The position numbers were made by a program, and so were the translations under genes. Positions 31,935-58,261 of a stretch of DNA of 64,000 nt are shown here, in pieces (the first letter of the stretch is position 1; every line of letters begins with the position of its first letter). This DNA comes from Candidatus Woesearchaeota archaeon (GTDB lineage: Archaea > Nanobdellota > Nanobdellia > Woesearchaeales > UBA583): the NCBI GenBank assembly GCA_965205335.1, contig OZ242164.1, positions 96,001 through 160,000 on the forward strand, read 5' to 3'. The notes beneath the pieces were generated by a model. That model was not told the DNA's origin, did not search any database, and saw only the letters and a program-made list of their open reading frames with translations.

Positions 31935-33815
31935 ATGAAACTTACCAATATTAAAATTAAGAATTTTAAGTCTTTAAAAGAGATGGACGTTGATTTAAAT
32001 TCTAATAAAAATTTAGTTATTGGTAAAAATAATTCAGGAAAGTCAAATTTTTTGGAGTGTATAGGGATGATGTTAAAACCAGGTCGGAGTGGAATGAATT
32101 TGCCAGCATTTAATTCCGAATTAAATCATGAATCAAAGTATTTGAATCCAAAGGAACCAATAGAGATAGAGGTTAGGTTTGATATAACAGATAGTCTAGC
32201 AAACTTACCTGAAGAAGTAAAAGTTTATTCATTTCAGGAGGTAGGAAGAACTTTCTTAGTACTTTCATTAGAAAAAAAAATAAATGAAGATGGTTTCTTT
32301 TATATTGGTAATACTAATGTTACTTTTCCAGAATATGTAAAAACTTCAAGGTATATTTATTTTAATTGTATTATTGTTGATACAGATAGAAAGTTTGATA
32401 AAAATATAAATTCTGATACTTGTTCTTCTATATTTGGAACAATTCTTTCGAATATGATTGGAGCCTTTATTGAAGCAAATAAAGGAAAACTACTTGATAT
32501 TTCTAAGGAGAGTGATGAAAATTTCTCAAATAATTTTTGTAAAATGCTAACTTTATGGTTTGAAAAACAAATTATTGTTGATTCTACTTTTGATGAGGTA
32601 AGAAGAGTTTTATTTAAGCATAAACATTGTATTAAGTGCGAGACATTAGATTTTATTAACAATGGATTTATAACTTTTGATTATTTGGAAAAGATCCTTA
32701 AGAAATTATCAATCTTAATGGATGATGGTAATTTGCAAGAAATAAATCTAAAGGGAATGGGAATTCAAAGTACATTTTTGATTAGTCTAATATTAAAGTG
32801 TAATATGTTTTTTAGAGTTCCTCCAATCATCTGTATTGATGAAGTTGAACTTCATTTACATCCTCAAGCTCAGAGAAGATTCAATTCAATATTAAATGAT
32901 CTTTCTTCAAAAAATCAGTTAATACTCACAACTCACTCTCCAATTTTTATAACTGAGACAGATATCTTTAAGTTAATACTATTTAAGAAAGAAGAGTATA
33001 CTTCTTTATCTCAGGTCGGAAATAGAGAGAATTTAAATGAGGACATAGTAAAAAGGGAATTAAATGAGTTTAATTCTGAAATGTTTTTTGCAAGCGCAGT
33101 TATGTTGGTCGAAGGTTTAACAGATAAATTATTTTTTAGATATATTGCTAATAATTGTCTAAGTCAAGAATATAATTTTGATAAAAATAATATTTCAGTT
33201 ATTCCTATTGGGAGTAAAGATAATGGTAGAATATATTTACAGATTCTAAATGAATTTAATATTCCATACTTTGTTCTTTTAGATAAAGGTGGAGAGAATC
33301 AAATTAAGAAGTTAGAAAGAATTAATAGATACAGTAATAATTTGGTTTCTCTAAAAAAAGGAGAGATTGAAGATTATTATTCAGAGGAATTGATTATAAA
33401 GATAAAGTTGAAAGAAGTTCCAAATGTTAAAGATCTTCTAGCAGACAAATTAAATAATAAACCGAATAAAAAGACAATTGAGAAAGCTTGGAAAAAGATG
33501 ATCTTAGATCATTTGGAAGATTTTCCTAAAAACAGATTTAAGGAATTGAGTAAAGAAGATCAAAACAGATTGAATAAAGATATATCAAAATGGTTCTCCA
33601 AGGCTTTGAATGAACTAGTGGCAGATAAAGATTTTGAAGTAGAACCTAGAAGAAAGTATCAAATATTAGCCTCAATATTTGGCTCAATAGGAAAACCGAG
33701 GTTAGCACTTACTTTATTAAATTATATGGAAGATGAGAAGTATCTCGATAGTGAGATCATAGATATTATAGTTAGAGTGGTTGATTTAAGTAAACATCAA
33801 AGATCAAAGGGTTAG
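31935..33815 (+). CDS. OLD-family ATP-dependent endonuclease
   Basis: GKNNSGKS, KGMGIQS, IDEVELHLHP, TTHSP, VMLVEGLTD, LLDKG. Confidence 0.9.
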   Translation: MKLTNIKIKNFKSLKEMDVDLNSNKNLVIGKNNSGKSNFLECIGMMLKPGRSGMNLPAFNSELNHESKYLNPKEPIEIEVRFDITDSLANLPEEVKVYSFQEVGRTFLVLSLEKKINEDGFFYIGNTNVTFPEYVKTSRYIYFNCIIVDTDRKFDKNINSDTCSSIFGTILSNMIGAFIEANKGKLLDISKESDENFSNNFCKMLTLWFEKQIIVDSTFDEVRRVLFKHKHCIKCETLDFINNGFITFDYLEKILKKLSILMDDGNLQEINLKGMGIQSTFLISLILKCNMFFRVPPIICIDEVELHLHPQAQRRFNSILNDLSSKNQLILTTHSPIFITETDIFKLILFKKEEYTSLSQVGNRENLNEDIVKRELNEFNSEMFFASAVMLVEGLTDKLFFRYIANNCLSQEYNFDKNNISVIPIGSKDNGRIYLQILNEFNIPYFVLLDKGGENQIKKLERINRYSNNLVSLKKGEIEDYYSEELIIKIKLKEVPNVKDLLADKLNNKPNKKTIEKAWKKMILDHLEDFPKNRFKELSKEDQNRLNKDISKWFSKALNELVADKDFEVEPRRKYQILASIFGSIGKPRLALTLLNYMEDEKYLDSEIIDIIVRVVDLSKHQRSKG

Positions 33816-34238
33816 TGTTGCTGGAACTTAGGTACTCCTATGTATAAAATTTCTTTTATGAATATAGGATTATACCTATAAAAGAGAAGGTGCTTATTAC
33901 AGCAGATGTGGAAGAGGCTCTGTAATAAATTCGGATGTTTAATTAAATTTTGTATTATTTAATTGATAAGAAGGGAAACAAATACTCTATTCATTTTGTA
34001 ACTATTTTTCTTAATTCTGTCACAATATCGACCATTGCCATTGTATCTAATTCACAATACTCTTTGAGTGCTTTTCTTATTTTCTTAATTTCTACTAGTG
34101 TGAATGAGATAGTTTTTTGAGGAGATAACATCTTTGATTTCTCTGTACTTTTACTTTTGGTTTTAATCATAAAATCTGTAGTCAGGTAAACAAAAAGTTA
34201 AGTTTTTTTATCCCTCCTTTATCTTTATGAAGCACATT

Positions 34239-34484
34239 CTATTCTTTTATGTTCCAATATCCACCCTTATCAGGTCCTATCCTTTCAATAATACCTTTCC
34301 TTTTCAGTTTATCTAATTGAAATTTAACCCCATCTTCACTAATTCCTACTAATTGAGATAATTCTCTCCTACTAACTTTAGGATTTTTCATAATCAAAGT
34401 AACTATTTTTCTAGTAGTTTTGTGAGTGATTTTCTGGGTAGTTTTCTGGGTAGTTTTCTGGGCAGTTTTCTGGGTAGTTTTCAT
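34239..34484 (-). pseudogene. C-terminal wHTH fragment with TTQK repeats; ATG lies at the junction with a half-MITE
   Basis: TTQK-type 12-bp repeats, IERIGPDKGGYW tail; second copy at 57309. Confidence 0.7.
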
Positions 34485-34545
34485 TTGTCAAAAATTACTT
34501 TATTTATATAACACTTTAAGTTCTCTTGACTTTCCGGACAGAGCC
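34483..34545 (-). mobile_element. Half MITE (IS5-type)
   Basis: ATTTGTCAAAAATTACTTT...TTTCCGGACAGAGCC. Confidence 0.85.
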
Positions 34546-34637
34546 GAATACTCCAAAAATTTATAAATCTTTAAATAAATATATTAAAATAGTTGAGTCT
34601 ATTTTAGAAGTCTATGGATAAGAGAGGGAAGATTTAA

Positions 34638-35993
34638 ATGAAAAATACAATTAAGATAAACCCAAAAAAACTTAATTATCTAATTAGGTTGTTCCAATTT
34701 ACTCCAGAAAGCTTTTTAGAAGAGTTTAACAGAGGAAGAAAAAGAATAAAACTAACTAAAGACTTGTTAGATAAAATTTTACAATCTACTGAATTTAATT
34801 TAAAAGAAGATATTTTAAAACAAATAGATAAATTTTTTGAAAGAGGAATTTCATATTATACCGATTTTTTAACAGAGAAAGTTGTAAGCAAGGAAAAATT
34901 AGAAGAGGAATTAAAAGATAATGTTTTCTTTAGAAAAGATAAATTTAATTCAAATTTGAATTTAGCAAGTAAGAAGAAAGTAATTTATTATAATGAATTA
35001 AAAAGAAGGATAATAACTCTAACGAAAAACATTAATTTCGATTTAGAAAGGAAATTGAAAAATAGTTATTCAGTAAATGATAATCCAAGAGATGTTGCCT
35101 TAGACTTTAGAAAAAAATTTGTTGAAATAGAAAAAAAATTAAAAGAGTGGGGAGAGTTAAGGAATCCTGTCTTAATAGGAGAGAATAAAAGAATTAAGAA
35201 AGAGAGTAAATATCAGAAACAAAAAGAATTCTTAGAAAATCTTATCAGGGTTATTGAAGATTTTAATATTTTTGTATTTGAATTTGTTGAAAGAACAAAT
35301 TTAAAAGATGAAAATAAAATCAATTTTAATGGTCTTTATTTAGAACCTAACATTATTGTAATTAAAAGAAATCAAAAATATTTCAAAAGAGAAATATTTA
35401 CACTTCTTCATGAGTTTGCTCATTATATTTTAAAGAAAGAAGAAATTGACGATGAAACAGATTCAAATTTGATTGAAGATACAGAAAAGTATAAAATTGA
35501 AAAATGGTGTAATGATTTCACTTTCTATTTTTTAGATGAAAATGATTTTAAAAACAAAATAAAAAACTGCAAGATAGATTCTTATAAAAGTAAATTGGAA
35601 GAATTTTCAAGAGATTCATTTTTAAGTATTTATTCCTATTATATCAAATTAGAGGAAAGTGGAAAGATATCAAAAGAAGAGTGTAAACGAAAGATAAAGG
35701 AATTTGAGGAAAATAGGATTAAAAAAGAAGAAGAAGATAGGAGAAAAAATAAAGAAGAGGAAAGAGAGAAGATTATTAAAAAACTTGAGGATTCAAGAGT
35801 AGAACCAACAGAAGAGAATATTAAAAAGCATGCAAAAGGAGGATTCGGTATTCCAAAACCTATTGAAAGTAATTTATATACAAAGATAGCTGAGATTAAT
35901 TTTTCTGCTGGAAATATTGATGAGACAGATTTGTGTGGATTGTTATCCTTAAAAGAAAAAGACCTAAAAGAAAGAGGGGTTTTATTGGAATGA
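34638..35993 (+). CDS. ImmA/IrrE-family metallo-endopeptidase
   Basis: REIFTLLHEFAH, IEKWCNDF. Confidence 0.85.
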   Translation: MKNTIKINPKKLNYLIRLFQFTPESFLEEFNRGRKRIKLTKDLLDKILQSTEFNLKEDILKQIDKFFERGISYYTDFLTEKVVSKEKLEEELKDNVFFRKDKFNSNLNLASKKKVIYYNELKRRIITLTKNINFDLERKLKNSYSVNDNPRDVALDFRKKFVEIEKKLKEWGELRNPVLIGENKRIKKESKYQKQKEFLENLIRVIEDFNIFVFEFVERTNLKDENKINFNGLYLEPNIIVIKRNQKYFKREIFTLLHEFAHYILKKEEIDDETDSNLIEDTEKYKIEKWCNDFTFYFLDENDFKNKIKNCKIDSYKSKLEEFSRDSFLSIYSYYIKLEESGKISKEECKRKIKEFEENRIKKEEEDRRKNKEEEREKIIKKLEDSRVEPTEENIKKHAKGGFGIPKPIESNLYTKIAEINFSAGNIDETDLCGLLSLKEKDLKERGVLLE

Positions 35994-36592
35994 GAATAAT
36001 AATTGATACAAGTAGTTTAATTTTCTTAAACAAGCATTTTTATTTTGATAAGTATAATATCAATAATAATTTTAATATTTTGTTAAATTTTATTAAATCT
36101 AAAATTGAAAACCATGAAATAGTTATAATTGATAAGGTTTTAAAAGAATTAGAAAGATTTCAAGGGAAAAATAATATAATTAATTATTTGAAGATTAATA
36201 ATGTTTGTGAAGTAAATGGTAAAGATATTGATTCCTTAATACATCAAAATTATTTAATAAAAAATGAGCAGAATTGTGGAGATATAGAAGAGGAGTTAAG
36301 AAGTTATAAATGGGAGAATGTAAATCAAAAAGGAGAAGAAATTAAAGGAAAATCAAACTATGCAGATTTGTTTTTAGTAAAGAAAGGGTTGGAATTTAAA
36401 AATAAAAGTAAAGAAGTTTTCATCATAACAGAGGAAAGTAAAAAGGATGATACAAAAATAATTGATAAAATACCAAATATTTGCCAAAAATATAAAATTA
36501 AATGTAAAAATCTGTCTTATTTGTTATTTGAAATTTATAAAGAAGAATTAGGATTTAAAGTAAGTATTAAGGCAGGAGAAAAAGGCAAGTAA
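35990..36592 (+). CDS. DUF4411-like PIN-domain protein
   Basis: IIDTSSLI, YADLFLV, IITEE, KIPNIC; ATGA overlap with the immA-like gene. Confidence 0.8.
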   Translation: MRIIIDTSSLIFLNKHFYFDKYNINNNFNILLNFIKSKIENHEIVIIDKVLKELERFQGKNNIINYLKINNVCEVNGKDIDSLIHQNYLIKNEQNCGDIEEELRSYKWENVNQKGEEIKGKSNYADLFLVKKGLEFKNKSKEVFIITEESKKDDTKIIDKIPNICQKYKIKCKNLSYLLFEIYKEELGFKVSIKAGEKGK

Positions 36593-36632
36593 AAAAGAAC
36601 TAAAAAACAAAGAACTAATTTAAATCACTCTG

Positions 36633-38468
36633 TTAGAGATTAGAATCATTACAACAAGAACACATTCCACAATTGTCTTTCTCATAATCTTCTTCAAAGT
36701 ATTTTAAAATCTTTTTCCTTATACAACCTTCACTTGTAACACATTCTACAAGCAAATCCAATCTTTCCAAATTATTTTTTAAGATAGTATCAAATTTATC
36801 AAGTAAAGGAGAGTAATCAAAATCCAAAATGTTTTTTTCTCTTAAAACAAGAGTCTTATATTTGGGTTTAGAAAATTTCAGACTTCCTTTTTTTCTCAAG
36901 TAGTTGAAAATTTCTTTGATTCTAAAATAATTTAAATTTGTCTCATTCATAATAAGTTGTAGATTTATATATTTTCTTCTACTATTTTTAAAAAATTCAC
37001 AATTTCCTATTTTTTCTAATTCCTCTCTATATTGTGGATTTTCCTTAATTATTTCAGAAAAATTTTTTCTAAACCCAGAATTAGGTTCAAATTGATAAAG
37101 AATATTATGATATGCTTTTATAATACCAACTTCTTCTAATCTATGTAAAATCAAGTTACTTGCAATCTCATTAACTTCAGATTTATGAGAAATATCCTTT
37201 GCAGATGTGAAAAAATATTTATCACCTTTACTTTCCAAATATGAAAGTATATCTTTTAGTTGATCTTCATTAGGCCACCCTCTTTTTAATAATTTCCTAA
37301 TCTTAGACTTATCGCTATCATCAAACAAAAAAATACACTTGGAATCTTTACCATCCCTTCCTGCTCTCCCAATTTCTTGATAATAATTTTCTACTGAATG
37401 AGGGATATTGTAGTGAATAACTTTTCTAATATCTGATTTGTCTATACCCATTCCAAAGGCTATAGTTGCAACAATTATATTTCTATTCCCATTCATAAAG
37501 TCATTTTGTGTTTTTTCTCTTTGTTCTAATGGTAATCCAGCATGATAGTAAGAACATTTTATACCCTCCTGACTTAAAGCTAATGCAATATCTTTTGCTG
37601 TTTCTCTATAACTTACATAAATTATAACTGATTCTTCTAAATTCTTTTTCAATATTTTAATTAGAAAATCTTTTTTCAAATCATCTTCCATTGGATAAAA
37701 TTTTATGTCTAAATTAGGTCTATCAAAAGATGTTTTGAAAACTTTGAATTTACTTTTAAACGTTTTTTCAATATCTTTTTCCACTTTTTCTGTAGCAGTT
37801 GCTGTAAGTCCTAAAACTTTTGGATTATTTAACTCTTCAATAATTTCAGGAATTCTCAAGTAATCAGGTCTAAAATCTTGTCCCCAAGTTGAAATACAAT
37901 GTGCTTCATCAACTACAAATAGATTAATATTTACTTCTTTTAATACCTCCAACAATCTTTCTGTTTTTAGAAACTCTGGTGAAATATATAATAAATCTAC
38001 TTTTCCTTTTTTAACTAAATCTAAAATTTCCTCTTTTATGTTCTCTGGAAGTGTTGAATTTATAAAAAATGCACTATAAATGTCTTTTTTGTTTAAGTTA
38101 TCAATTTGATCCTTCATCAAAGCAATTAGAGGACTTACAACAATAGTTAAACCTTCTTTAACTAACATTGGAATTTGAAAACATAAAGATTTTCCCCCTC
38201 CTGTTGGCATAATCCCCAATATTCTCTTATCTTCCTCATTGAGGATATTATTAATGATTTCCTTTTGTTGTGGCTTGAAATCATTATATCCAAATACTCT
38301 TTCAAGAATATAATCTGGAGAGTAATTCTGATATGAAGCAGAAGAATTCCTTCTACACTTCTCAATTAAATCTAATATTCCATCTTCATATTTTTTATTG
38401 TCAGTTGTAAATCCTTTTCTCTTCCTTTCTTCTTTAATTTCCTCAATAAATCTTTCTGCTTCATCCAT
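36633..38468 (-). CDS. recQ: RecQ-family DNA helicase
   Basis: MPTGGGKS, VVDEAHCISTWGQDFRPDY, ATIAFGMGID, YQEIGRAGRDG, C-terminal Zn motif. Confidence 0.95.
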   Translation of the reverse strand: MDEAERFIEEIKEERKRKGFTTDNKKYEDGILDLIEKCRRNSSASYQNYSPDYILERVFGYNDFKPQQKEIINNILNEEDKRILGIMPTGGGKSLCFQIPMLVKEGLTIVVSPLIALMKDQIDNLNKKDIYSAFFINSTLPENIKEEILDLVKKGKVDLLYISPEFLKTERLLEVLKEVNINLFVVDEAHCISTWGQDFRPDYLRIPEIIEELNNPKVLGLTATATEKVEKDIEKTFKSKFKVFKTSFDRPNLDIKFYPMEDDLKKDFLIKILKKNLEESVIIYVSYRETAKDIALALSQEGIKCSYYHAGLPLEQREKTQNDFMNGNRNIIVATIAFGMGIDKSDIRKVIHYNIPHSVENYYQEIGRAGRDGKDSKCIFLFDDSDKSKIRKLLKRGWPNEDQLKDILSYLESKGDKYFFTSAKDISHKSEVNEIASNLILHRLEEVGIIKAYHNILYQFEPNSGFRKNFSEIIKENPQYREELEKIGNCEFFKNSRRKYINLQLIMNETNLNYFRIKEIFNYLRKKGSLKFSKPKYKTLVLREKNILDFDYSPLLDKFDTILKNNLERLDLLVECVTSEGCIRKKILKYFEEDYEKDNCGMCSCCNDSNL

Positions 38469-38507
38469 ATCATTAATTAATAATCAGAAAATTTTTAAAA
38501 CTTTGTG

Positions 38508-39314
38508 TTAAAAAGGTTTTTGAGTCTTCTCTTTAAACCATCTTATGAAATTTTTTGTTTTTAAAGAATTTGCTGGAGGAGCAGGTAATTGCAAAAGTTT
38601 CCCATGGCGACAAAAATAGATAGAAATTGTCTTTATTTCTAAATATTTATCTGCTTCATCAATTCCTCCTATGAGGGAAAGAATATAGTAACCTATTAGT
38701 TGGTGAAAGTCTTCTTTTTTGAGTTTGAGGTTTTTAGTTGTTTTGAAATCTATAATTTGGTTATCTAGAATAATATCTGCATCTGCTCCTCCAACCAACC
38801 TAGATGCTTTACCAAAAGTTGGGTTAAGCAAACATATTTTGTTGGCGGTAAATAAATTCTTGTCAACTAAGTTAATTAAATTTCTTAAGTCTTGAATATC
38901 TCCTTCATCAACCTTGTCAATGTTTGGATCAATATAACCAGCTCTATAAATTAGATCTATTTTTGCTAATAAAATAGTTGTTTTTAAAACATCATCAGAT
39001 AAGACTCCATTTTCAAGATACTTCAGATAGACTTTCTTAGCGTTATCTACTGTCTTTTTCAGTTTGTTTTTTAAAACATCACCAGGGATTCTACTTAGGG
39101 CATTTTCTGCTACCCATTCTTTGGTTATTGCGTTTGGATTACTCCGTTTGATGTAAAAACGGAGTAAATAATCAAAAGCTGTTCCAACCAAACCATAATG
39201 TTTAGTGATAGGGGGTGCTTTTAATTCTGCTTTAAGTTCAATTTTAGGCAGTGGAAATGTTTCTACAAATTTCTTTCTCACATCAGGATTTTTTATGAAT
39301 GAAGTTAAACTCAT
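38508..39314 (-). CDS. PD-(D/E)XK-like nuclease
   Basis: GTAFDY, ADADIIL..IIDFKT, QLIGY. Confidence 0.7.
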   Translation of the reverse strand: MSLTSFIKNPDVRKKFVETFPLPKIELKAELKAPPITKHYGLVGTAFDYLLRFYIKRSNPNAITKEWVAENALSRIPGDVLKNKLKKTVDNAKKVYLKYLENGVLSDDVLKTTILLAKIDLIYRAGYIDPNIDKVDEGDIQDLRNLINLVDKNLFTANKICLLNPTFGKASRLVGGADADIILDNQIIDFKTTKNLKLKKEDFHQLIGYYILSLIGGIDEADKYLEIKTISIYFCRHGKLLQLPAPPANSLKTKNFIRWFKEKTQKPF

Positions 39315-39649
39315 AACATTTTGTTAATGAGGAATTTTATATAAAGGTTTGTGAAGTTGATTGATTTGTCTAACTTATTGTTCTTATTTTGATATTTGTA
39401 AGAATAGATAAATCAAATTTATAGAGAACGCTAAATATTTATTATCCCACCATCTAAGTACTAAATAAATTAGATAAAAATTAAATAATAATCCAATTGA
39501 AACAAACTTAAAAAATAAAATGTCTGATAAAAATACTTGAAAAACAAAAAAATTAGAAGAAAAGAAAAAAATTATTCATCAAAAATTGCTCTATTTCTTG
39601 AATTTCTGAACGGAGTTTATAGTTGAAGATTATACTATAGTGAGGATTA

Positions 39650-40576
39650 TTAATCTTTATATTTTCCAAATACTTTACTAAACTTCTCGGATGTGACCAT
39701 TAACCATTCCAAATGATAATCCCTATTATAATCAGTTATTATAAAATTTTCTTTAGTTGCTTTAATTCTTGATGCTTTTTTACCTTCTAATTGCATCCAT
39801 TCTAATTTCATATCTAATTCTTTTTCTATCTTATCTTTATTACATTCAAATTTGTAATATAAATCCTTTGAGTCAGGAATATAAATCTCAGTTCCTATTT
39901 GGTTTGTTTGTGAATTAATAGTTAATGCAATATGACTTTCCGAGCTTCCATAACTTAGATCTAACCAATGTTGAGGATGTGCTTTTCTAAATCTTAGCTT
40001 AGAACCTTTTTCCTTACAATATTCTTTTAGTTTATTCCAAAACTCTAATTGCATTAATTGGGTATCAGAGTACCCTCCTTTTCTCTGAGAGGTTTTAATT
40101 GCTTTAGCCCATGAGTTAGGTTTTGAGATTACTTCAAATTTAGGTGCAAAATCAGAATTTCCAATTTGCCATAGTTCCATTTTAATTGCAAAGAAATTTA
40201 ATTTTTCATCGGTGTGTTCATTTAACCAATCAATGGCCTGTTTGTGTTCATCTCTTACATTTTTAACTAGCCAAATAACAATTTCAGCATCATGTCCTGA
40301 AGCATAAGTAATAATTTTACCTAAATGATCATGGTTTGTATTTTCTAATTGATTTTCAATGATTATTTTTCTACCTGTGATTTCTTCTTCTGCTAGAATA
40401 TCCACATTATATCTTCCAACACTTGCTTCTGTTTCTATTACTTTAATTCCTACATCTATTTCTTCACTTAGAATTGCCAGATTCTCTTCTTCAACTAGCC
40501 AGTTTGTGAAATCTAATGCTTCATTTTCCCATGCTTTTCTCAAATCTATTTTTTTCAACTTGCTCAATTTTACCAT
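39650..40576 (-). CDS. DUF4268 protein (copy 2)
   Basis: Near-identical to 19308..20234 including flanks. Confidence 0.85.
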   Translation of the reverse strand: MVKLSKLKKIDLRKAWENEALDFTNWLVEEENLAILSEEIDVGIKVIETEASVGRYNVDILAEEEITGRKIIIENQLENTNHDHLGKIITYASGHDAEIVIWLVKNVRDEHKQAIDWLNEHTDEKLNFFAIKMELWQIGNSDFAPKFEVISKPNSWAKAIKTSQRKGGYSDTQLMQLEFWNKLKEYCKEKGSKLRFRKAHPQHWLDLSYGSSESHIALTINSQTNQIGTEIYIPDSKDLYYKFECNKDKIEKELDMKLEWMQLEGKKASRIKATKENFIITDYNRDYHLEWLMVTSEKFSKVFGKYKD

Positions 40577-41476: not shown

Positions 41477-42061
41477 TTAACTTAGTTTTGAATTTTCAAA
41501 GTCTTCTTTTTTAATTAAAACTTGTTTTAAAACACACTGTGACAATTCGTTTGAACGGGAAAAATCAGAATTTCTTTTTTTATCATAATATGTATATAGT
41601 ATAGTTTTTACGTTTTCACTGTCAATGTCTTTGATTACTGGTACAAAATCACTATCACAAGCAATTAATATTATTTTTTTTATATCAGAGAATTTGTAGG
41701 GTGTTTTTGATAAATCCATAGTTAAATGAGTATCTACACCTTTTTGAGTATATACAAATTTTCTATTCTTTTTCACTCTTTGGACTCTTCCCTCTCTAAT
41801 TGTAATGTTATTTCCAAGAGATAATTTGTGTACAAATTTATCATAGTTCTCTTTCTTTATGCTTTGTTCTCTAGTTGGTTTGCTTGAGATAAATGGAGGG
41901 GCTGTATAGTAAAATATATGTTCAACTTTTAATCTTTCTTTTTTTGCAAAGATTTCTGCTAATCTGAATATGTCATATTTTAAATATTTACCATTTCCAT
42001 AGTGTAAAGCTAATTTTGATAGAAATCCTGCATCAATAAAAATTAGAGTTTTTTCTGACAT
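41477..42061 (-). CDS. NYN-domain ribonuclease (family A)
   Basis: IFIDAGF, FYYTAPP, QKGVDT, IACDSDFVP. Confidence 0.9.
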   Translation of the reverse strand: MSEKTLIFIDAGFLSKLALHYGNGKYLKYDIFRLAEIFAKKERLKVEHIFYYTAPPFISSKPTREQSIKKENYDKFVHKLSLGNNITIREGRVQRVKKNRKFVYTQKGVDTHLTMDLSKTPYKFSDIKKIILIACDSDFVPVIKDIDSENVKTILYTYYDKKRNSDFSRSNELSQCVLKQVLIKKEDFENSKLS

Positions 42062-42250: not shown

Positions 42251-42836
42251 TCAGTTTCTTGTTCCCTCAAATTCCATTGAAAAGATTCTAGTGTAGATTG
42301 TAACTTTTACTCCTTTTTTTCCTTTAGTGAATAAATTTAAGGTTCTATCGTCTATGTAGTTGTCTATTAGTTTTATTGATTTTTTGGCATTTCTTATTAG
42401 GTCTGAGATAAATTTGTGTGCATCAAATAGTTGTCCTTCAAAGAATATTCCTTTTTGGGGTTTTATGTCAGGGTTTTTAAGTAGTGAGAATATTTTGTTG
42501 AAGTTGGTGTCATAGTCCAATAATTTGTTCTCAATAACATTTAATCTATATAGCATATCTTGATTTTCAGAAATAAATTTTTTCATTTCTATGAATGCAT
42601 TTATTATCTGAATGCTTATTTTGATTGCGGTTTTGCTGTGGAGTACTGCTGAGAGCATTGAAACTCCTTGTTCTGTAAAGACGTAAGGTAATTTTCTTCT
42701 CCCTCCATGTTCATAACTTGAAGTCACAATTTGTGACGTCAAGATTTCATATTCATGTTTAGTCATTTGGAACATAAATTCCTTTGGAAATCTCTCAATA
42801 TTTCTTTTTACTGCCTGATTTAGCACTTTTGTTTCA
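42251..42836 (-). pseudogene. ORF6N-domain gene, 5'-truncated copy of 50182..50868
   Basis: LNQAVKRNIERFP, LPYVFTEQGVSMLS. Confidence 0.8.
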
Positions 42837-45082: not shown

Positions 45083-47686
45083 TTAATCCTCATAAACTAT
45101 CCAATAATTAAAATTTTTCTTCCGCCCATCCTTAAGTTCAATTTCCTCTGGAAATTCAAATGTGCCCATCTTTTCATTTAAACTAAATCTTTTTCTAACA
45201 TACAACCCAACTAAAGATGGATCTTTTGAAATTGAAGGAAGGAGATGGAATTTTTCAGATTTTTTCATTTCTAAAATCCTCTCAGGAGGAATTAGCTCAT
45301 TTGAATTAATATTTATTAATTTAGAGAACAATCTTGAAATTATAAACTGTTCAAATGGCTTATACTTATCTAAATCGTGTCCTCTAAACATAATCGGCAC
45401 GAGGAAAACATAACAGGTATCTTCTGTTACAGGATGTTTGTATGGATAATAGTAGCTAATCACTGGAAATTCATCTAAGATTTTAGGTCGACTGTGCATA
45501 AGAGAATAATTATAAATTTCATGAAACAAATCTTCAACTTTTTTTGGGTAAGAAGATATTCCTCTTGAATCAATTACATAACCTCTTGGCAAAGAATCTG
45601 GTTTTTCATATATTAAACTATATAATTTCGTTAAAACTGCATCAGGGCTTCTTCCAAAGAATTCTTGTGATATTTCCGGCTTACTTCTTATCATTAATTT
45701 CAATTCATCCAAATATTTATCATATAAAGAAATTAATCTATTTACATCCTCATCACTCCACGGAGAGTTAAGAATTGAAAACTTTGTTTCTTGTTCCAAG
45801 AAAGGCTCGAAAAGACCATATTTCTTAAAAAGTCTTTTTACTTCAGTAGGACTTGCTTCTCTTAAAAATTTTTTAAATGTCTCGGAGAGTGAAAAAATAT
45901 CTTTATTCTCTTCTTTATATTTTGAAATACTTAAATAGTAAGATTTGTATGGACCTTCAGAACTCCTTTTAATAATTGTTTGACAAATATTCTCTATTTT
46001 CTCTGTTTCATATTCACGTAATCTGTCTTTGTATAAACCAAGTTCAACTAATTGAGGCAATATCTCTTCCATATTAGGATTCTTTCCCTCCCACTTGAAT
46101 CCAAGCAAACTAAATAAACCTATATTTGATACAATGAATTTTTTATTAATTTCCTCAATATTACCAATTTTGGAGAAAACTTTCTTAAACGTCTTAGATC
46201 CTAAAAAAATACTTTTATTGTCTTCTTTATATTTTGAAATACTTAAATAGTAAGATTTGTATCCACCACCTTCAGAATTCCTCTTAATAATTGTTTGACA
46301 AATATTCTCTCTTTTCTCTGTTTCATATTCATTTAATCTGTCTTTGTATAAACCAAGTTCAACTAATTGAGGCAATATCTCTTCCATATTAGGATGCCTT
46401 CCCTCCCAAGTAAATTCAAGCAAATTAAATAAACTTTTATTTGGTTCAATGAATTCATTCTTAATTTCCTCAATATTACCAGTTTTGGAGGAAGCTTCAT
46501 TCTTATATTCGTTAAATGTCTTAGATCCTAAAAAAATACTTTTATTGTCTTCTTTATATTTTGAAATACTTAAATAGTAAGATTTGTATGAACCCTCAGA
46601 AGTCCTGTTGATAATTGTTTGACAAATATTCTCTCTTTTCTCTGTTTCATATTCATTTAATCTGTCTTTGTATAAACCAAGTTCAACTAATTGAGGCAAT
46701 ATCTCTTCCATATTAGGATCCTCTCTCTTCCAAGTAAATTCAAGCAAATTAAATAAACTTTTATTTTTTCGAATGAATTCAGCCTTAATTTCTTCAATAT
46801 TACCAATTTTGGAGAAAGCTTCATTCTTAAATTCGTTAAATGTCTTAGATCCTAAAAAAATACTTTTATTGTCTTCTTTATATTTTGAAATACTTAAATA
46901 GTAAGATTTGTAATTACTTTCAGAAGTCCTGTTGATAATTGTTTGACAAATATTCTCTCTTTTCTCTGTTTCATATTCACGTAATCTGTCTTTGTATAAA
47001 CCAAGTTCAACTAATTGAGGCAATATCTCTTCTATTGTAGGATTCTGTCGCTCCCACTTGAATCCAAGCAAATTAAATAAACTTTTATTTGATACAATGA
47101 ATTCATTCTTAATTTCCTCAATATTACCAGTTTTGGAGAAAGCTTCATTCTTATATTCGTTAAATGTCTTAGATTCTAAAAAAATACTTTTATTGTCTTC
47201 TTTATATTTTGAAATACTTAAATAGTAAGATTTGTATGGACCTTCAGAACTCCTTTTAATAATTGTTTGACAAATATTCTCTATTTCCTCTGTTTCATAT
47301 TCACGTAATCTGTCTTTGTATAAACCAAGTTCAACTAATTGAGGCAATATCTCTTCCCTAATAGGATGCTTTTCCTCCCACTTGAATCCAAGCAAACTAA
47401 ATAAACCATTATTTGATACAATGAATTTAGCCTTAATTTCCTCAATATTTTCTGGTAAAAATAATTGTTTGGAATGTAAAAATCCTCTCGTTTTCCAAGG
47501 TCCTACAAATCTAAATAAAGTATTAAGCAATTCCATTGAATGTTTGAGTTTTTCAAAGTTTGATTCTCCTGTCTCAGCTTTAAAATAATTTTCCTTTAAA
47601 TAGTTTACATATGCAATAAAATTATCCTTGTTGATGTTATCTTTTTTAGATACTAGTACTCCTTTAATGTCTTCAAAACGACTCAT
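45083..47686 (-). CDS. Tandem-repeat protein (5 x ~108 aa) with C-terminal Myb/SANT-like motif
   Basis: 324-bp DNA period (47435 vs 47111); WSDEDVNRL..GRSPDAVLTKL. Confidence 0.85.
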   Translation of the reverse strand: MSRFEDIKGVLVSKKDNINKDNFIAYVNYLKENYFKAETGESNFEKLKHSMELLNTLFRFVGPWKTRGFLHSKQLFLPENIEEIKAKFIVSNNGLFSLLGFKWEEKHPIREEILPQLVELGLYKDRLREYETEEIENICQTIIKRSSEGPYKSYYLSISKYKEDNKSIFLESKTFNEYKNEAFSKTGNIEEIKNEFIVSNKSLFNLLGFKWERQNPTIEEILPQLVELGLYKDRLREYETEKRENICQTIINRTSESNYKSYYLSISKYKEDNKSIFLGSKTFNEFKNEAFSKIGNIEEIKAEFIRKNKSLFNLLEFTWKREDPNMEEILPQLVELGLYKDRLNEYETEKRENICQTIINRTSEGSYKSYYLSISKYKEDNKSIFLGSKTFNEYKNEASSKTGNIEEIKNEFIEPNKSLFNLLEFTWEGRHPNMEEILPQLVELGLYKDRLNEYETEKRENICQTIIKRNSEGGGYKSYYLSISKYKEDNKSIFLGSKTFKKVFSKIGNIEEINKKFIVSNIGLFSLLGFKWEGKNPNMEEILPQLVELGLYKDRLREYETEKIENICQTIIKRSSEGPYKSYYLSISKYKEENKDIFSLSETFKKFLREASPTEVKRLFKKYGLFEPFLEQETKFSILNSPWSDEDVNRLISLYDKYLDELKLMIRSKPEISQEFFGRSPDAVLTKLYSLIYEKPDSLPRGYVIDSRGISSYPKKVEDLFHEIYNYSLMHSRPKILDEFPVISYYYPYKHPVTEDTCYVFLVPIMFRGHDLDKYKPFEQFIISRLFSKLININSNELIPPERILEMKKSEKFHLLPSISKDPSLVGLYVRKRFSLNEKMGTFEFPEEIELKDGRKKNFNYWIVYED

Positions 47687-47835
47687 TTTATATTAATGAA
47701 CAACTAATAGTTTTTATAAATATAACTTTTTTAAGGTACTAATTAATCTGGAATACTGACTGTCAATATCAATCTTAATCTGAAATACATGTTTATAACC
47801 ACTAAGATTTTTATATCTTATTGGATTTTTCCTGA

Positions 47836-48594
47836 CTAAATTAAGTTTATCTGAAATCCTCCAAAATACTCTAACAAACCAATTCTAACTGGACTTCTAC
47901 CCAAATACTTCCTCATAAAATAATTCAACCTATTCCCAATAATAGTATTTGCTACCTCAACAAATCTTCTAGGATATACAAATATATCACCATCAAAAGT
48001 TTCTCCTAAGGGACCGAATCTACCTGATAGATAGGATTTGGCATTCCTCAAATCTAAGGAATAACTTCCTGTTGCAATTATTCCAACTCCCTCACCTATC
48101 TTTCCTCTATCTACCAAATTTTTAAGTGCCATTGGCCAACCATTGTAAAATGTGACTTCATCTAGGATAATAATTAAGGGTTTGTGTTCATTAAACTTCT
48201 CAAGGAGTGCTTCAATCAACTCTTGCAAATTCTTCTTTGAATTTAAAACACCAAGTAGCTTTTCATTATCTAAAGAAAAATAAAGTAAAGACTTAGGTGA
48301 AACTCCTTCTTCAATTAGTTTCTTAGTAATGAATTTCAACATTGAAGTTTTTCCAATTCTCCTAGGACCTCTAATTACAACCATCCCAAATTTATTCCTC
48401 TCATTAAAATGTCTATCAAAAAAATTTTCTTTCAAATAAAAATATACTTTTGGGGGTTCATCACTAAGTCCCAAATTTTCAGCATCAACAATATACCTCA
48501 ATGCTTCATCTTCCTTGTACCAGTCTTCATTAGTAATCCAAGGACTTTCCTGCAAAACTAGATCTACTAAATCATCAATCTCCTTTCTTTCCAT
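47836..48594 (-). CDS. AAA_14-type ATPase, probably truncated
   Basis: RGPRRIGKT, IILDEV, IATGS, LSGR. Confidence 0.8.
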   Translation of the reverse strand: MERKEIDDLVDLVLQESPWITNEDWYKEDEALRYIVDAENLGLSDEPPKVYFYLKENFFDRHFNERNKFGMVVIRGPRRIGKTSMLKFITKKLIEEGVSPKSLLYFSLDNEKLLGVLNSKKNLQELIEALLEKFNEHKPLIIILDEVTFYNGWPMALKNLVDRGKIGEGVGIIATGSYSLDLRNAKSYLSGRFGPLGETFDGDIFVYPRRFVEVANTIIGNRLNYFMRKYLGRSPVRIGLLEYFGGFQINLI

Positions 48595-48684: not shown

Positions 48685-49035
48685 TCAAATTCTTAGATTC
48701 CTCTTTTGCAAAACTTTGGAATATATGTTCTCAATCCTCTTATTCATTAGGTTCATTCTATTTGTGTTGTTGTGAATTTGCCTCTGCAAGTCTGAAATTT
48801 TTCTTGATATTTCTTTACTCTCTGTGCTTGAGGCTTCTTCATCTCTCTCAGCATTCTCTCCTCTTGATTTCTCAATATAATTCTTTATAGATTGAACTAT
48901 AAATTTTGATTTTGAAATATCTTCTTCTGAGACAACTGATTCCATTTCCCTTAACAATTCATTGTCTATTCTGAAACTAAGTTTATGTCCTTTGTTGAGT
49001 TTATTTTTTATAGGTTTGTTTAAGTTGTCTGACAT
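48685..49035 (-). CDS. Ribbon-helix-helix (CopG-like) regulator with coiled coil
   Basis: LSFRIDNELL..ISKSKFIVQSI; its start and promoter (~49008-49080) are duplicated at ~49121-49192. Confidence 0.75.
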   Translation of the reverse strand: MSDNLNKPIKNKLNKGHKLSFRIDNELLREMESVVSEEDISKSKFIVQSIKNYIEKSRGENAERDEEASSTESKEISRKISDLQRQIHNNTNRMNLMNKRIENIYSKVLQKRNLRI

Positions 49036-49191
49036 AATAATACAATGTGAGACATTATTTATAAACTTTGTTATTGTATGCCCTGAAACAGAATCTATGT
49101 TTCTTATTGGGTTTGTCTTTTATAGGTTTGTTTAAGTTGTCTGACATAATAATACAATGTGAGACATTATGTATAAACTTTGATATTGTAT

Positions 49192-49319
49192 GGCTCTGTC
49201 CGGAAACTGTTTTCTCCAAAATCTATGCTAACTATATTCAATCAAAGAAAAAAATTATTTGTTAAAAATTACTTTATTGATACAATATTTTAAGTTCTCT
49301 TGAATTTCCAGACAGAGCC
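49192..49319 (-). mobile_element. 128-bp IS5-type MITE (copy B, inverted)
   Basis: GGCTCTGTCCGGAAA ... TTTCCAGACAGAGCC. Confidence 0.9.
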
Positions 49320-49425: not shown

Positions 49426-49998
49426 TCAATTTTCAAAGTCTTCTTTTTTAATTAAAACATATTTTTCCACATTCTGTAATAATTCATTTGACCTTGAAAA
49501 ATTAGTATTTCTGTCTCTATTAAAATAAGTGTAAAGAATTGTTTTAACTCCCTTTTTGTAAGCATTGTTTATCGCAGGAATAAAATCAGTATCACATGCA
49601 ATTAGAATTACATTTTTTATATTTGGATATTTAGCAGAAGTCTCAATTAAATCAATAGTTAGCAAAGTATCAACTCCTTTTTGAGAAAACTTGTACCTAT
49701 TACCCTCTTTTACTCTTTGACACCTTCCTTCTCTTATAGTAATTATTGAATTTTTCTTAAGTTTTAGAAGAAATTTATCATAATTTTCTTTTCTTCTGTT
49801 TTCATCTTCTGTTGGTCTATTTGAAACAAATGGTGGGGCAGTATAATAAAAAATCCTTTCAATCTTAAAATTTTCTTTTTTAGCAAAAATATTTAGTAAA
49901 CTAGTTATATCAAATTTCAGATATTTTCCATTTCCCAAGTATTGAGAGAGTTTTGAAAGAAATCCAGCATCAACTAGTATAAGTGTTCTCCTATTCAT
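49426..49998 (-). CDS. NYN-domain ribonuclease (family A)
   Basis: ILVDAGF, FYYTAPP, QKGVDT, IACDTDFIP. Confidence 0.9.
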   Translation of the reverse strand: MNRRTLILVDAGFLSKLSQYLGNGKYLKFDITSLLNIFAKKENFKIERIFYYTAPPFVSNRPTEDENRRKENYDKFLLKLKKNSIITIREGRCQRVKEGNRYKFSQKGVDTLLTIDLIETSAKYPNIKNVILIACDTDFIPAINNAYKKGVKTILYTYFNRDRNTNFSRSNELLQNVEKYVLIKKEDFEN

Positions 49999-50181: not shown

Positions 50182-50868
50182 TCAGTTTCTTGTTCCCTCA
50201 AATTCCATTGAAAAGATTCTAGTGTAGATTGTAACTTTTACTCCTTTTTTTCCTTTAGTGAATAAATTTAAGGTTCTATCGTCTATGTAGTTGTCTATTA
50301 GTTTTATTGATTTTTTGGCATTTCTTATTAGGTCTGAGATAAATTTGTGTGCATCAAATAGTTGTCCTTCAAAGAATATTCCTTTTTGGGGTTTTATGTC
50401 TGGGTTTTTAAGTAGTGAGAATATTTTGTTGAAGTTGGTGTCATAGTCCAATAATTTGTTCTCAATAACATTTAATCTATATAGCATATCTTGATTTTCA
50501 GAAATAAATTTTTTCATTTCTATGAATGCATTTATTATCTGAATGCTTATTTTGATTGCGGTTTTGCTGTGGAGTACTGCTGAGAGCATTGAAACTCCTT
50601 GTTCTGTAAAGACGTAAGGTAATTTTCTCCTTCCTCCATGTTTATGACTTGAAGTCACAATTTGTGACATCAAGTTTTCATATTCTTGTTTGATCATTTG
50701 AAACATAAATTCTTTTGGGAATCTTTCAATATTTCTTTTTACTGCTTGATTTAGCACTTTTGTTTCAACTTGGTAGAATTTAGCCAAATCAGAATCAAGC
50801 ATGACTTGAACTCCTCTAATGATATGAATTTTGTTTTTTATGTTTTTGATTAATTCAGCTCTTTCCAT
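50182..50868 (-). CDS. ORF6N-domain protein (C-terminal domain truncated)
   Basis: IRGVQVMLDSDLAKFYQVET, FPKEFMFQ, LIDNYID. Confidence 0.85.
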   Translation of the reverse strand: MERAELIKNIKNKIHIIRGVQVMLDSDLAKFYQVETKVLNQAVKRNIERFPKEFMFQMIKQEYENLMSQIVTSSHKHGGRRKLPYVFTEQGVSMLSAVLHSKTAIKISIQIINAFIEMKKFISENQDMLYRLNVIENKLLDYDTNFNKIFSLLKNPDIKPQKGIFFEGQLFDAHKFISDLIRNAKKSIKLIDNYIDDRTLNLFTKGKKGVKVTIYTRIFSMEFEGTRN

Positions 50869-52766: not shown

Positions 52767-53302
52767 GTAAAAAAACTTATTTAGAATTTATTTATTTATT
52801 AAGTGTGTTACTTCAAATTCTTTTAAAAGTTTCTGGGATATGTTTTTTTCAAAATAGCATAATTCTATTTTTTTATTGTTTTCTTTTAGATTCTTAATTA
52901 CTGGGATAAAATCTCCATCACCACTAATTAGAATGAATTTTTCACAAATGTTTTCATAGTTACATTTAAGCATATCAACTGCTAAATTTACATCATCTCC
53001 TTTGATTATATATTGTTCTTTTTCCTCAATTAATCTTTTATGTCTCTTGCATAGGATAATATTGAAATTTTTAATTTTTCTTAATCTTTTAAAAAATTCC
53101 TGTTGTTTTACAAATAAATTTTCAAGACCCTTTAATTTTTTTAGAGAACCATTATAATAAAAGATTTCTACTATAATTTCTTTGTCTCCTATTAAATAAT
53201 TTATATATTTTTCAAAATCAAAACTAATATCAGAATATCTCTTATTTATTGTCCTAACACCATAGAAGAAATTAGCCCCATCTATAAAAAACAAACTTTC
53301 AT
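52767..53302 (-). pseudogene. NYN-domain gene (family B), decayed
   Basis: FIDGANF, KGDDVNLAVD, SGDGDF; ATG at 53302 is out of frame by 1 nt; premature TAA precedes ILNKFFYRE. Confidence 0.8.
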
Positions 53303-57703: not shown

Positions 57704-58261
57704 ATGAAAGTTCTTGTTTTTATAGATGGTGCTAATTTCTTTTATGGCATAAGAAGTATTAGATCTAAATATAGTGATTTAAATTTTAATTTTGAAAAAT
57801 ATATAAAAAATGAGATTTTAAAAGAAGCAGATGAATTATTGAACGTTTTCTATTACAATGCTCCATTAAAAAACTTAGGTGGAAATAATAATCTGTATGC
57901 TAAACAACAAAGATTTTTTATAAAATTAGAGAAAACAGAAAAGTTCAAAGTAATTTTGTGTAAAAGGCAGAAGAGATTAAATGAAAGAGGAGAAGAGTTT
58001 CACGTAATTAAAGGTGATGACATTCATTTAGCAGTTGATTTAGTTAGATGTTTATATGAAACAGAAGTTGATAAGATAATTTTAATGAGTGGAGATGGGG
58101 ATTTCAAACCTGCAATCAGATTGGCAAAAGAGAAAGATAAAATTGTAAATCTGTGTTATTTTAAAGATAACATTTCTAAGAATATTTATAATATAACAAA
58201 TCAGAAGTATTTAATAGATAAAAGAATTTTAAATAAATATTTTTATAGATGGAAAAAATGA
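57704..58261 (+). CDS. NYN-domain ribonuclease (family B)
   Basis: VFIDGANF, FYYNAP, KGDDIHLAVD, MSGDGDFKP. Confidence 0.9.
   Translation: MKVLVFIDGANFFYGIRSIRSKYSDLNFNFEKYIKNEILKEADELLNVFYYNAPLKNLGGNNNLYAKQQRFFIKLEKTEKFKVILCKRQKRLNERGEEFHVIKGDDIHLAVDLVRCLYETEVDKIILMSGDGDFKPAIRLAKEKDKIVNLCYFKDNISKNIYNITNQKYLIDKRILNKYFYRWKK

Follow-up and report, generated by a model that had tools for sequence, protein, structure and literature searches.

Among the natural sources of modular binders that can be designed, helical tandem-repeat proteins are the principal one. In TALE proteins the repeats are 33–35 residues long and are near-identical across the family except for two specificity residues. The TALE arrays of Xanthomonas consist of tandem units whose DNA sequences are almost the same; the residues that vary are clustered, and the number of units differs between arrays. 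Similar features are found in a gene of a Candidatus Woesearchaeota (DPANN) archaeon, which lies in a 64,000-nucleotide stretch of assembly GCA_965205335.1 (contig OZ242164.1, positions 96,001 to 160,000; referred to here as the window). An uninterrupted frame at 45083..47686 (-) encodes an intact protein of 867 residues, here labelled P0001, with five tandem units followed by a putative Myb-like domain and a tail. The protein belongs to a rare archaeal family, and we propose that its array is young and evolves in concert, and that it may act as a helical binding scaffold.

A first-pass annotation, made by reading the window, had suggested that the repeats follow a TALE- or PPR-like code logic. 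We do not retain this suggestion, because the combination of a constant scaffold and variable patches appears to be specific to one young array. The units of the window protein are 105–108 residues long, compared to 33–35 in TALE, and its variable patches span 8–11 residues rather than two. Family units are diverged throughout their length (mean within-protein identities of 0.18–0.82 in 26 proteins), and a reading of one base by one unit is without support.

Architecture of the repeat protein

The anchor EEILPQLVELGLYKDRL occurs five times in the protein, with spacings of 108, 108, 108 and 105 residues. Tandem Repeats Finder gives a single array at 45892-47449, with a period of 324, 4.8 copies, 90% matches and 1% indels. 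The five units of about 108 residues that had been read from the sequence are thus present, as units of 108, 108, 108, 105 and 105 residues (Table 1). Unit 4 has one additional residue in the second of the two variable patches described below (patch B), and lacks four residues in its tail. The tail of unit 5 grades by divergence into the linker that follows.

The N-terminal cap ends in HSKQLFLPENIEEI, which is similar to the tail of a unit. The cap is common to the related proteins P0002 and P0004 and to a 67-residue fragment, P0026. The highest Kyte-Doolittle mean over 19 residues is 0.88, which indicates no membrane segment, and the repeat protein is predicted to be soluble and cytoplasmic.

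Variation among the five units

In a codon alignment, three blocks are invariant in all five units, with no nucleotide change at unit columns 32–48, 57–63 and 73–85. Change is dense at columns 21–31 (patch A) and 65–72 (patch B). Columns 1–97 contain 50 variable nucleotides out of 291, and these are clustered: in comparisons with 20,000 shuffles, the longest invariant run (51 nt) has a permutation p of 0.001 and the index of dispersion (2.09) a p of 0.0001. The first-pass annotation had named the three invariant blocks, noting that they are constant largely at the DNA level too, and had placed the variation in the same two patches. Both descriptions are borne out: the named blocks carry no nucleotide change, the patch sequences are as noted, and the clustering is significant against shuffles.

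Pairs of units differ at 24–52 of 303–324 nt. Nonsynonymous (dN) and synonymous (dS) divergence were calculated by NG86, and range between pairs of units from 0.083 to 0.180 and from 0.052 to 0.216, respectively. In the two patches dN is 0.276 and dS is 0.266; in the rest of columns 1–97 they are 0.066 and 0.057; and in the 37 invariant codons both are 0. The overall dN/dS between units is ~1.1 (0.100/0.090). Variable sites are spread evenly over the three codon positions, with 6, 8 and 7 in the patches and 10, 10 and 9 elsewhere. The contrast between scaffold and patches therefore includes silent sites, and carries no signature of selection on amino acids. The amino-acid-specific selection implied by the earlier description of clustered non-synonymous changes is not supported, as dN/dS is ~1 in the patches and outside them alike.

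Alleles had also been described as mixed in a mosaic between units. In agreement with this, the variable sites divide the units in three ways, {1,5} from {2,3,4}, {1,2,5} from {3,4}, and {1,4,5} from {2,3}, which are mutually incompatible on one tree. Since the three partitions fit no single tree, pieces have moved between units, and the mosaic points to gene conversion or unequal exchange. On the sequence evidence, the pattern fits a young array that has been homogenised by gene conversion, and selection for a code is not supported.

The possibility that the array is the target of a diversity-generating retroelement was considered and rejected. The genome, a single contig that is 95% complete, has no match to the reverse transcriptase family PF00078 (RVT_1), in a search in which the positive controls were detected. 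There are 50 variable sites, and each unit has A at 20 of them or fewer; G/T, C/T and C/G sites occur.

The array was also compared with Logan contigs from three sequencing runs (X1–X3) of one sample, which is possibly the source sample of the genome. Pieces from these runs match unit-specific stretches with 0–1 differences, and nine pieces from X1 and seven from X2 fit two places in the stretch. The depth is low, at 2–5 per contig for most pieces, with summed bin depths of up to 18.5. No RNA run is among the sequencing runs listed as holding the stretch. The unit variants are real, and the number and order of the units rest on the genome assembly.

Predicted structure of the repeat unit

A model of two units (residues 188–403) was generated with AlphaFold from a 31-row alignment (A1). 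It is all-helical, with a pLDDT of 94.9 and a pTM of 0.83. The junction between the units is confident (block means 88–94), which in the model points to one continuous rod and not to a string of beads. Patch A forms an 11-residue loop between helices 14–19 and 31–40, and patch B consists of the end of helix 53–66 and the loop 67–74. In the model both variable patches lie in predicted loops.

Fold searches of the two-unit model gave little. Foldseek against the PDB gave a best E of 0.8, with TM scores of 0.23 or less among the 48 matches listed, and against BFVD (viral structures) a best E of 1.6. VIA-align against 48,161 chains gave a best Z of 3.4, with none at Z ≥5, and a second fold comparison gave a best Z of 2.7. 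According to a benchmark from the fold-search tool, helical models usually reach a Z of ~14. As modelled, the pair of units is unusually lonely among solved structures. A fold search on the unit had been proposed with the first-pass annotation; the PDB, BFVD and VIA-align searches gave no confident match of the unit to a known structural repeat.

The weak fold matches are mostly to solenoids (MIF4G, VHS, importin-alpha, Pumilio and CAND1). The profile of the family matches designed armadillo proteins with E values of 4.5e-6 and 1.6e-5, through the motif LDD...GN...kLieaG.lS..L. The family shares with armadillo and HEAT solenoids (the designed proteins 5MFB and 4D49, and importin-alpha) the predicted all-helical tandem array and rigid junction as well as this profile match, but the unit is ~105 residues long, compared to ~42 for the three-helix armadillo repeat that builds a superhelix, and the fold scores are at noise level. 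Importin-alpha ARM domains match the two-unit model weakly (Foldseek E 2.7-4.5, TM 0.20-0.22). No Arm (PF00514) or HEAT Pfam match was found for P0001, nor for 23 members at E ≤0.01, and for the 31 alignment rows there is none in the full table for row 1 or among the first 25 of 100 families tallied. Pumilio/PUF proteins are likewise helical repeat rods with weak fold matches to the model (Foldseek E 1.4 and 4.5, Z 2.2), but these scores are not significant, no PUF family of Pfam matches at the thresholds used, and the unit is three times longer.

There are also weak matches of helix-hairpin-helix type, namely RNAseD_HRDC_C (27.5 bits, summed), DNA_pol_lambd_f (30.2 bits, in P0016) and uS13 (E 2.2). 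The pattern GI.sLDDI....gl..iLGF..gnp....rLvelG resembles helix-hairpin-helix motifs, a type of module found in HRDC, the Pol lambda fingers, uS13 and the arrays of Topoisomerase V. If this resemblance is real, patch A would be the hairpin. Against it, the matches are weak or are summed over repeats, and no helix-hairpin-helix protein is among the fold matches listed. We treat both the armadillo and the helix-hairpin-helix resemblances as leads, and not as evidence of membership.

Distribution and divergence of the family

Besides the query, a word-indexed search gave just two proteins: a metagenome protein of 534 residues with two units (P0002), and a protein of 583 residues from the same genome as the window (P0003). 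When 1.84 billion representatives were searched exhaustively with phmmer, 29 proteins reached E ≤1e-3, 23 reached 1e-10 and 5 reached 1e-30. An iterated hidden Markov model (HMM) of the unit identified 1–8 units in 28 of the 30 proteins collected, fragments included, the two without units being P0003 and P0026. Full-length members are built from a short N-terminal piece, 2–8 units, a linker, a segment with the pattern W..EE..L...FG(R/V)S..A...K, and a conserved tail. The consensus of the unit is.LDdI.......gl..iLGf......e....LvelG.FS..L.dYs.e..E.Ii..ii...s.....SyYls......lEeNR.ifa.S..fk.yL...gi.

The family is present in 6 of 401 sampled genomes of the phylum, the genome of the window included, and the repeat gene is absent from all four sampled genomes of the same genus. 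The cluster members that carry a name are annotated as hypothetical proteins from 'Candidatus Woesearchaeota archaeon'. One partial member, of 1.8 kb, is labelled Gammaproteobacteria. A pattern scan with P0001 yielded no relative, either in genome contigs or in viral ones; one with a narrower alignment (A3) also found none in viral contigs, and found a relative in one genome contig, labelled as an uncultured Methanosarcinales metagenome-assembled genome. A profile of the tail only found two short proteins on contigs of less than 2 kb and eight longer ones, all eight of which are either family members or P0003. Among the matches to this profile, the tail thus appears to occur only together with the repeats or in P0003, a transposase chimera of the same genome that is described below.

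Searches of Pfam, NCBIfam, PHROG and PADLOC gave scattered matches, mostly with no single stretch passing and differing from member to member, and these were treated as noise arising from the repeats. The ESM Atlas gave no usable match for residues 700–867 or for P0008. A full-text search of the literature, judged at listing level, found nothing relevant, which is weak evidence that the family is undescribed. Taken with the structural predictions, these searches indicate a rare, unnamed family mainly of DPANN (Woesearchaeota-type) archaea, with a unit that, as modelled, resembles no solved structure.

The mean identity between units of the same protein is 0.82 in the window protein; for the 25 others that have at least two units it lies between 0.18 and 0.80 (for example 0.57 in P0004, 0.33 in P0007 and 0.27 in P0008). 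Between proteins the mean is 0.28. Units are therefore closer within proteins than across them, as would result from lineage-specific expansion or concerted evolution, and by sequence identity the window array is the youngest seen in the family. A comparison of repeat number and alleles among homologues had been suggested along with the code logic. The number does vary, from 2 to 8, but units elsewhere are diverged throughout, and a near-constant scaffold is not general in the family.

The columns that vary in the window protein are also the most variable in other members, with an entropy of 3.12 bits compared to 2.37 (p = 7e-5), and their variability within proteins is 0.67 compared to 0.45 (p = 6e-7). 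Patch A is the main site of insertions and deletions in the family, and the two patches correspond to its most variable and indel-prone columns. This variability fits loops that are free to change, and is compatible with loops that set specificity too.

C-terminal Myb-like domain and tail

The C-terminal region (residues 600–867) was modelled separately, with a pLDDT of 77.9. Residues 40–99 of this model match Myb repeats and homeodomains with Z of 5.0-5.7 and a root-mean-square deviation (rmsd) of 1.8-2.9 Å over 44-59 residues. These ranges cover 18 matches with Z ≥5.0, in which nearly the whole of the small domain is aligned. Among these 18 are the first and second repeats of c-Myb, Cdc5, Reb1 and homeodomains; the matches of the search also include TRF1, and homeodomains are numerous among them. 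In a second fold search of the same residues, Myb domains and homeodomains match at Z 3.3-4.6, and transposase helix-turn-helix domains and the R2 Myb domain at Z 3.3-4.2. In the first of these searches, residues 639–698 of the protein superpose on Myb/SANT domains and homeodomains (c-Myb R1 1MBE, c-Myb R2 1MBG, Cdc5 6JUI, Reb1 5EYB and TRF1 1W0T) with Z 4.6-5.7 and rmsd 1.8-2.9 Å; unlike the tandem R2R3 arrangement of Myb, there is a single domain, and the Pfam model is unmatched.

At the sequence level, the W, L, G and A positions are the same in all 20 aligned members, and the pattern GRS...A...K is kept. The best match in a profile search of the PDB is to the DNA-binding domain of Timeless (E 0.43). 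These observations support a Myb/homeodomain-like three-helix bundle with a conserved aromatic core, at the level of the predicted fold. The Myb/SANT-like motif of the first-pass annotation thus stands as a match of fold (Z 5.0-5.7), but not as a match to the Pfam Myb or SANT sequence model.

The α/β domain that follows has the order α-β-β-α-β4 and conserved F/Y-P, N, P, G, Y, E-Q and R. It has no fold match above Z 2.1, in a part of the model that, according to a warning of the search tool, was barely tested. With Foldseek the best match to the tail model has an E of 6.7e-3 and a poor TM score. A C-terminal domain of about 170 residues had been left unassigned, and the last ~150 residues still match nothing with confidence.

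A paralogue fused to a transposase

Residues 613–867 are 71% identical to the end of P0003, encoded at G000:C1:441014-442762. This is the only paralogue in the genome, and it carries a copy of the Myb-like domain and the tail, with no unit. P0003 begins with a DDE transposase of IS6/IS240 type that has a SWIM finger and a zinc ribbon (DDE_Tnp_IS240). The tail has a dN/dS of 0.52 (0.152/0.292) against that of P0003. The gene for P0003 adjoins an aspartyl-tRNA synthetase gene.

The transposase part of P0003 matches seven places in the genome, of which two are full-length, one covers residues 104–332, and four are short 3' fragments. At locus L003, homology among the insertion sequence (IS) copies ends at position 2504 and homology to the window gene begins at 2495. 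The join is in frame, eight codons before the usual stop of the transposase. P0003 looks like the product of a rearrangement in which another copy of the repeat gene lost its front, rather than a designed fusion. The four fragments (L006-L009; Table 1) hold only the last 35–70 codons of the transposase, in open frames of 51–146 residues. They may have been left behind by rearrangements of the same kind at the IS 3' end.

Promoter region

A TATA-like box, GTTATATTTATAAAAA, is centred ~32 nt before the ATG. The genome encodes the TATA-binding protein, which marks it as archaeal and makes an archaeal promoter plausible. Just upstream of the box are two copies of the 14-nt sequence TTAATCTGRAATAC, at 47743 and 47775. 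This direct repeat beyond the TATA box had been noted previously, and its two copies prove to be the sole exact copies in the 1.2-Mb genome. Four more matches occur at one mismatch, compared to two for the reversed control, and four of 100 shuffles of the window give at least two matches at one mismatch or less. The count alone is weak, and it is the closeness of the two copies that is notable. The pair is plausible as a candidate regulator site.

Genomic context

Defence-type and mobile genes are abundant in the window. Six genes, from the GajA-like ATPase to PDC-S11, form a defence-type run at 31935-40576 (Table 1). The window also contains an AbiLi-like ATPase, a HEPN/nucleotidyltransferase pair, ParE, PIN_12, a RhuM fragment and a DDE transposase fragment. 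The four NYN-domain genes are separate and lie within 17 kb. The gene upstream of the repeat gene encodes an AAA_14/PDC-S01-like ATPase of 252 residues (47836-48594, -). This ATPase covers positions 22–144 of a 412-position defence-candidate profile and so looks truncated; no remainder of it was seen between 44722 and 45083. Beyond it are a CopG/Arc-like ribbon-helix-helix gene (48685-49035, -) and a short open reading frame (ORF; 49055-49219, -) that repeats its first ~20 codons (MSDNLNKPIK...), and is a partial duplication of its 5' end.

Table 1. Positions of the repeat gene, its parts and other features. Positions are those of the window except for the transposase remnants, which are given in genome coordinates.
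Feature	Position	Strand	Basis or remark
Whole gene, 867 codons + stop	45083..47686	-	soluble protein, no hydrophobic segments
N-terminal cap, residues 1-79	47450..47686	-	sequence reading and family comparison
Unit 1, residues 80-187 (108)	47126..47449	-	anchor spacing, codon alignment, unit HMM
Unit 2, residues 188-295 (108)	46802..47125	-	also first half of two-unit model
Unit 3, residues 296-403 (108)	46478..46801	-	also second half of two-unit model
Unit 4, residues 404-508 (105)	46163..46477	-	anchor spacing, codon alignment, unit HMM
Unit 5, residues 509-613 (105)	45848..46162	-	anchor spacing, codon alignment, unit HMM
Putative Myb/SANT- or homeodomain-like three-helix domain, residues 639-698	45593..45772	-	fold match and family alignment
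C-terminal α/β domain, residues 715-867, no fold assigned	45086..45544	-	tail model, family alignment
TATA-like box	47711..47726	-	read from sequence; putative function
Two copies of 14-nt repeat, 32 nt apart	47743..47788	.	just upstream of TATA-like box
OLD/GajA-like ATPase-Toprim	31935-33815
IrrE/CapP-like peptidase	34638-35993
DUF4411	35933-36592
DpdF/RecQ-like helicase	36633-38468
PDC-S61-like	38508-39314
PDC-S11	39650-40576
NYN-domain genes (four)	41477-42061, 49426-49998, 52788-53294, 57704-58261
ORF6N/Rha genes (two)	42251-42826, 50182-50868
Transposase 3' remnants (L006-L009)	G000:C1 375612-375818, 324256-324393, 1055949-1056074, 794999-795100

In genomes of the same genus, all that is shared with window 38-57 kb is a scatter of multi-copy pieces, and the repeat gene is missing altogether; the region is a strain-specific island. 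The ORF6N and RhuM pieces recur at scattered places in these genomes. In other genomes the neighbours of five homologues are mutually unrelated and many are of housekeeping type; they include diphthamide synthase, a GAF histidine kinase, a protein kinase, a DEAD helicase, a family X polymerase and methyltransferases. In PADLOC-DB v2, P0001 has one summed match (E2, 25.7 bits) with no stretch passing, and none of three homologues tested matches. As the neighbours are unrelated and no defence family is matched, position gives no evidence of function. The first-pass annotation had argued from a defence island; the window is indeed defence-rich, but the protein matches no defence family and the five homologues examined lie outside defence islands. 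The weakest match to the family, L024 (G265:C12:1000-14955), lies within a run of six same-strand ORFs of 216–612 residues with no Pfam match, which may be a block of repeat-only relatives.

Discussion

These observations indicate that the array grew to five units by recent tandem duplication in the genome of the window, and that gene conversion between units keeps it partly uniform, which accounts for blocks that are identical even at silent sites. The differences between units fall in two predicted long loops, at the least constrained, indel-prone positions of the family. In the function that we propose, the units would pack into one rigid rod. Its loop pairs would stand in a row and together bind a ligand, which could be a protein, a peptide or a nucleic acid. 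The Myb-like domain would tether the rod to DNA or to a partner, and the paired 14-nt repeats before the gene's own promoter are a candidate site for the repeat protein or for another regulator. Taken as a whole, this account of a rare archaeal family with a young, concertedly evolving array and a DNA-tethered helical binding scaffold, the function of which is our inference, seems to us somewhat more probable than not.

Several points weigh against it. The binding of a ligand or of DNA is a prediction. The units are near neutral (pI 5.6-6.8), so that charge gives no pointer to nucleic acid. By a hand count there are ~7 silent events in columns 1–97, which is thin evidence for conversion, and the chance that no silent event hits the 37 invariant codons is ~0.035 by our own arithmetic. 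A dN/dS near 1 among units fits relaxed constraint too. The Myb-like match is modest (Z 5-5.7, ~50 residues) in a model of middling quality (pLDDT 77.9), and P0001 does not match the Pfam Myb_DNA-binding or SANT models at E ≤0.1. Around the five homologues there is no conserved neighbour gene to hint at a pathway. In addition, no Logan contig bridges a whole unit, and parts of the stretch are uncovered.

The last point raises the question of whether assembly has distorted the number of units or their order, with the unit variants being real. No contig from X1–X3 spans a unit, the depth is low and some pieces fit two places; but the differences between units (24–52 of 303–324 nt) suffice for unique placement, the unit-specific pieces match with 0–1 differences, the genome is a single 1.2-Mb contig, and homologues with 2–8 units exist independently. 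We consider an artefact improbable. Relaxed constraint has more in its favour, and we regard it as unlikely rather than remote. It would make the gene an accessory one that underwent a recent, largely neutral amplification in a strain-specific island, giving a pattern without functional meaning. The dN/dS of ~1.1 between units and the even spread of variable sites over codon positions agree with this, as do the absence of the gene from the four genomes of the same genus, the scattered multi-copy pieces that are all they hold of window 38-57 kb, and a sole paralogue in which what is left of the tail is joined to an IS transposase. It accounts less well for the gene having its own TATA-like box, for an architecture that is the same in distant members of the family, and for the dN/dS of 0.52 between the tail and its paralogue. 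An open frame of 867 codons at 25-29% G+C also speaks against it, weakly, as the units are young.

The proposal of a code has to be judged on the same data. In this proposal the protein is a re-programmable binder like TALE or PUF, in which each unit reads one element of a polymer through its two loops, and shuffling of alleles re-targets it. The variation does lie in two loops on a scaffold identical at the DNA level, with mosaic alleles; the same columns vary within other family members; the unit number ranges from 2 to 8; the confident junction makes the predicted rod look rigid; and the family profile weakly resembles armadillo peptide binders made by design (E 4.5e-6). Against this, dN/dS is ~1 in the patches and silent changes are raised there too, older arrays diverge over the whole unit (mean identities of 0.27 in P0008 and 0.33 in P0007), unlike the TALE repeats with their two variable residues, and no target-like repeat array was seen, although none was specifically searched for. 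On balance a code of this type is distinctly unlikely. We give a similarly low weight to a broader form of the idea, that units of ~105 residues form a new class among helical recognition repeats, present mainly in DPANN archaea. Two surface loops per unit, aligned along a rigid rod, would read a polymeric ligand unit by unit, and gene conversion would re-target the protein by exchanging loop alleles between units. The Myb-like domain and family tail would in that case be the anchor to DNA, and the unit would be longer than that of TALE, PUF, PPR or armadillo proteins, with a different fold. A role as a defence or sensor component of the island, in which the variable loops recognise invader molecules, is suggested by the defence genes of the window and by the PDC-S01-like AAA_14 ATPase directly upstream. 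We think it very improbable, given that there is no consistent PADLOC match, that the neighbours of the five homologues are unrelated, and that the pattern scans found no relative in viral contigs.

The results also suggest a caution for similar cases, which is that a constant scaffold with hypervariable patches can stem from a young array whose loops drift freely. Our preferred account, of a young array in a rare family of helical binding scaffolds, would add to the known types of helical repeat a predicted unit of ~105 residues that has no library name and no solved likeness, and whose structure would be worth having. The family is one more lineage-restricted protein of DPANN archaea, organisms with very small genomes, and the array would show the readiness of the genome studied here to copy and homogenise repeated modules.

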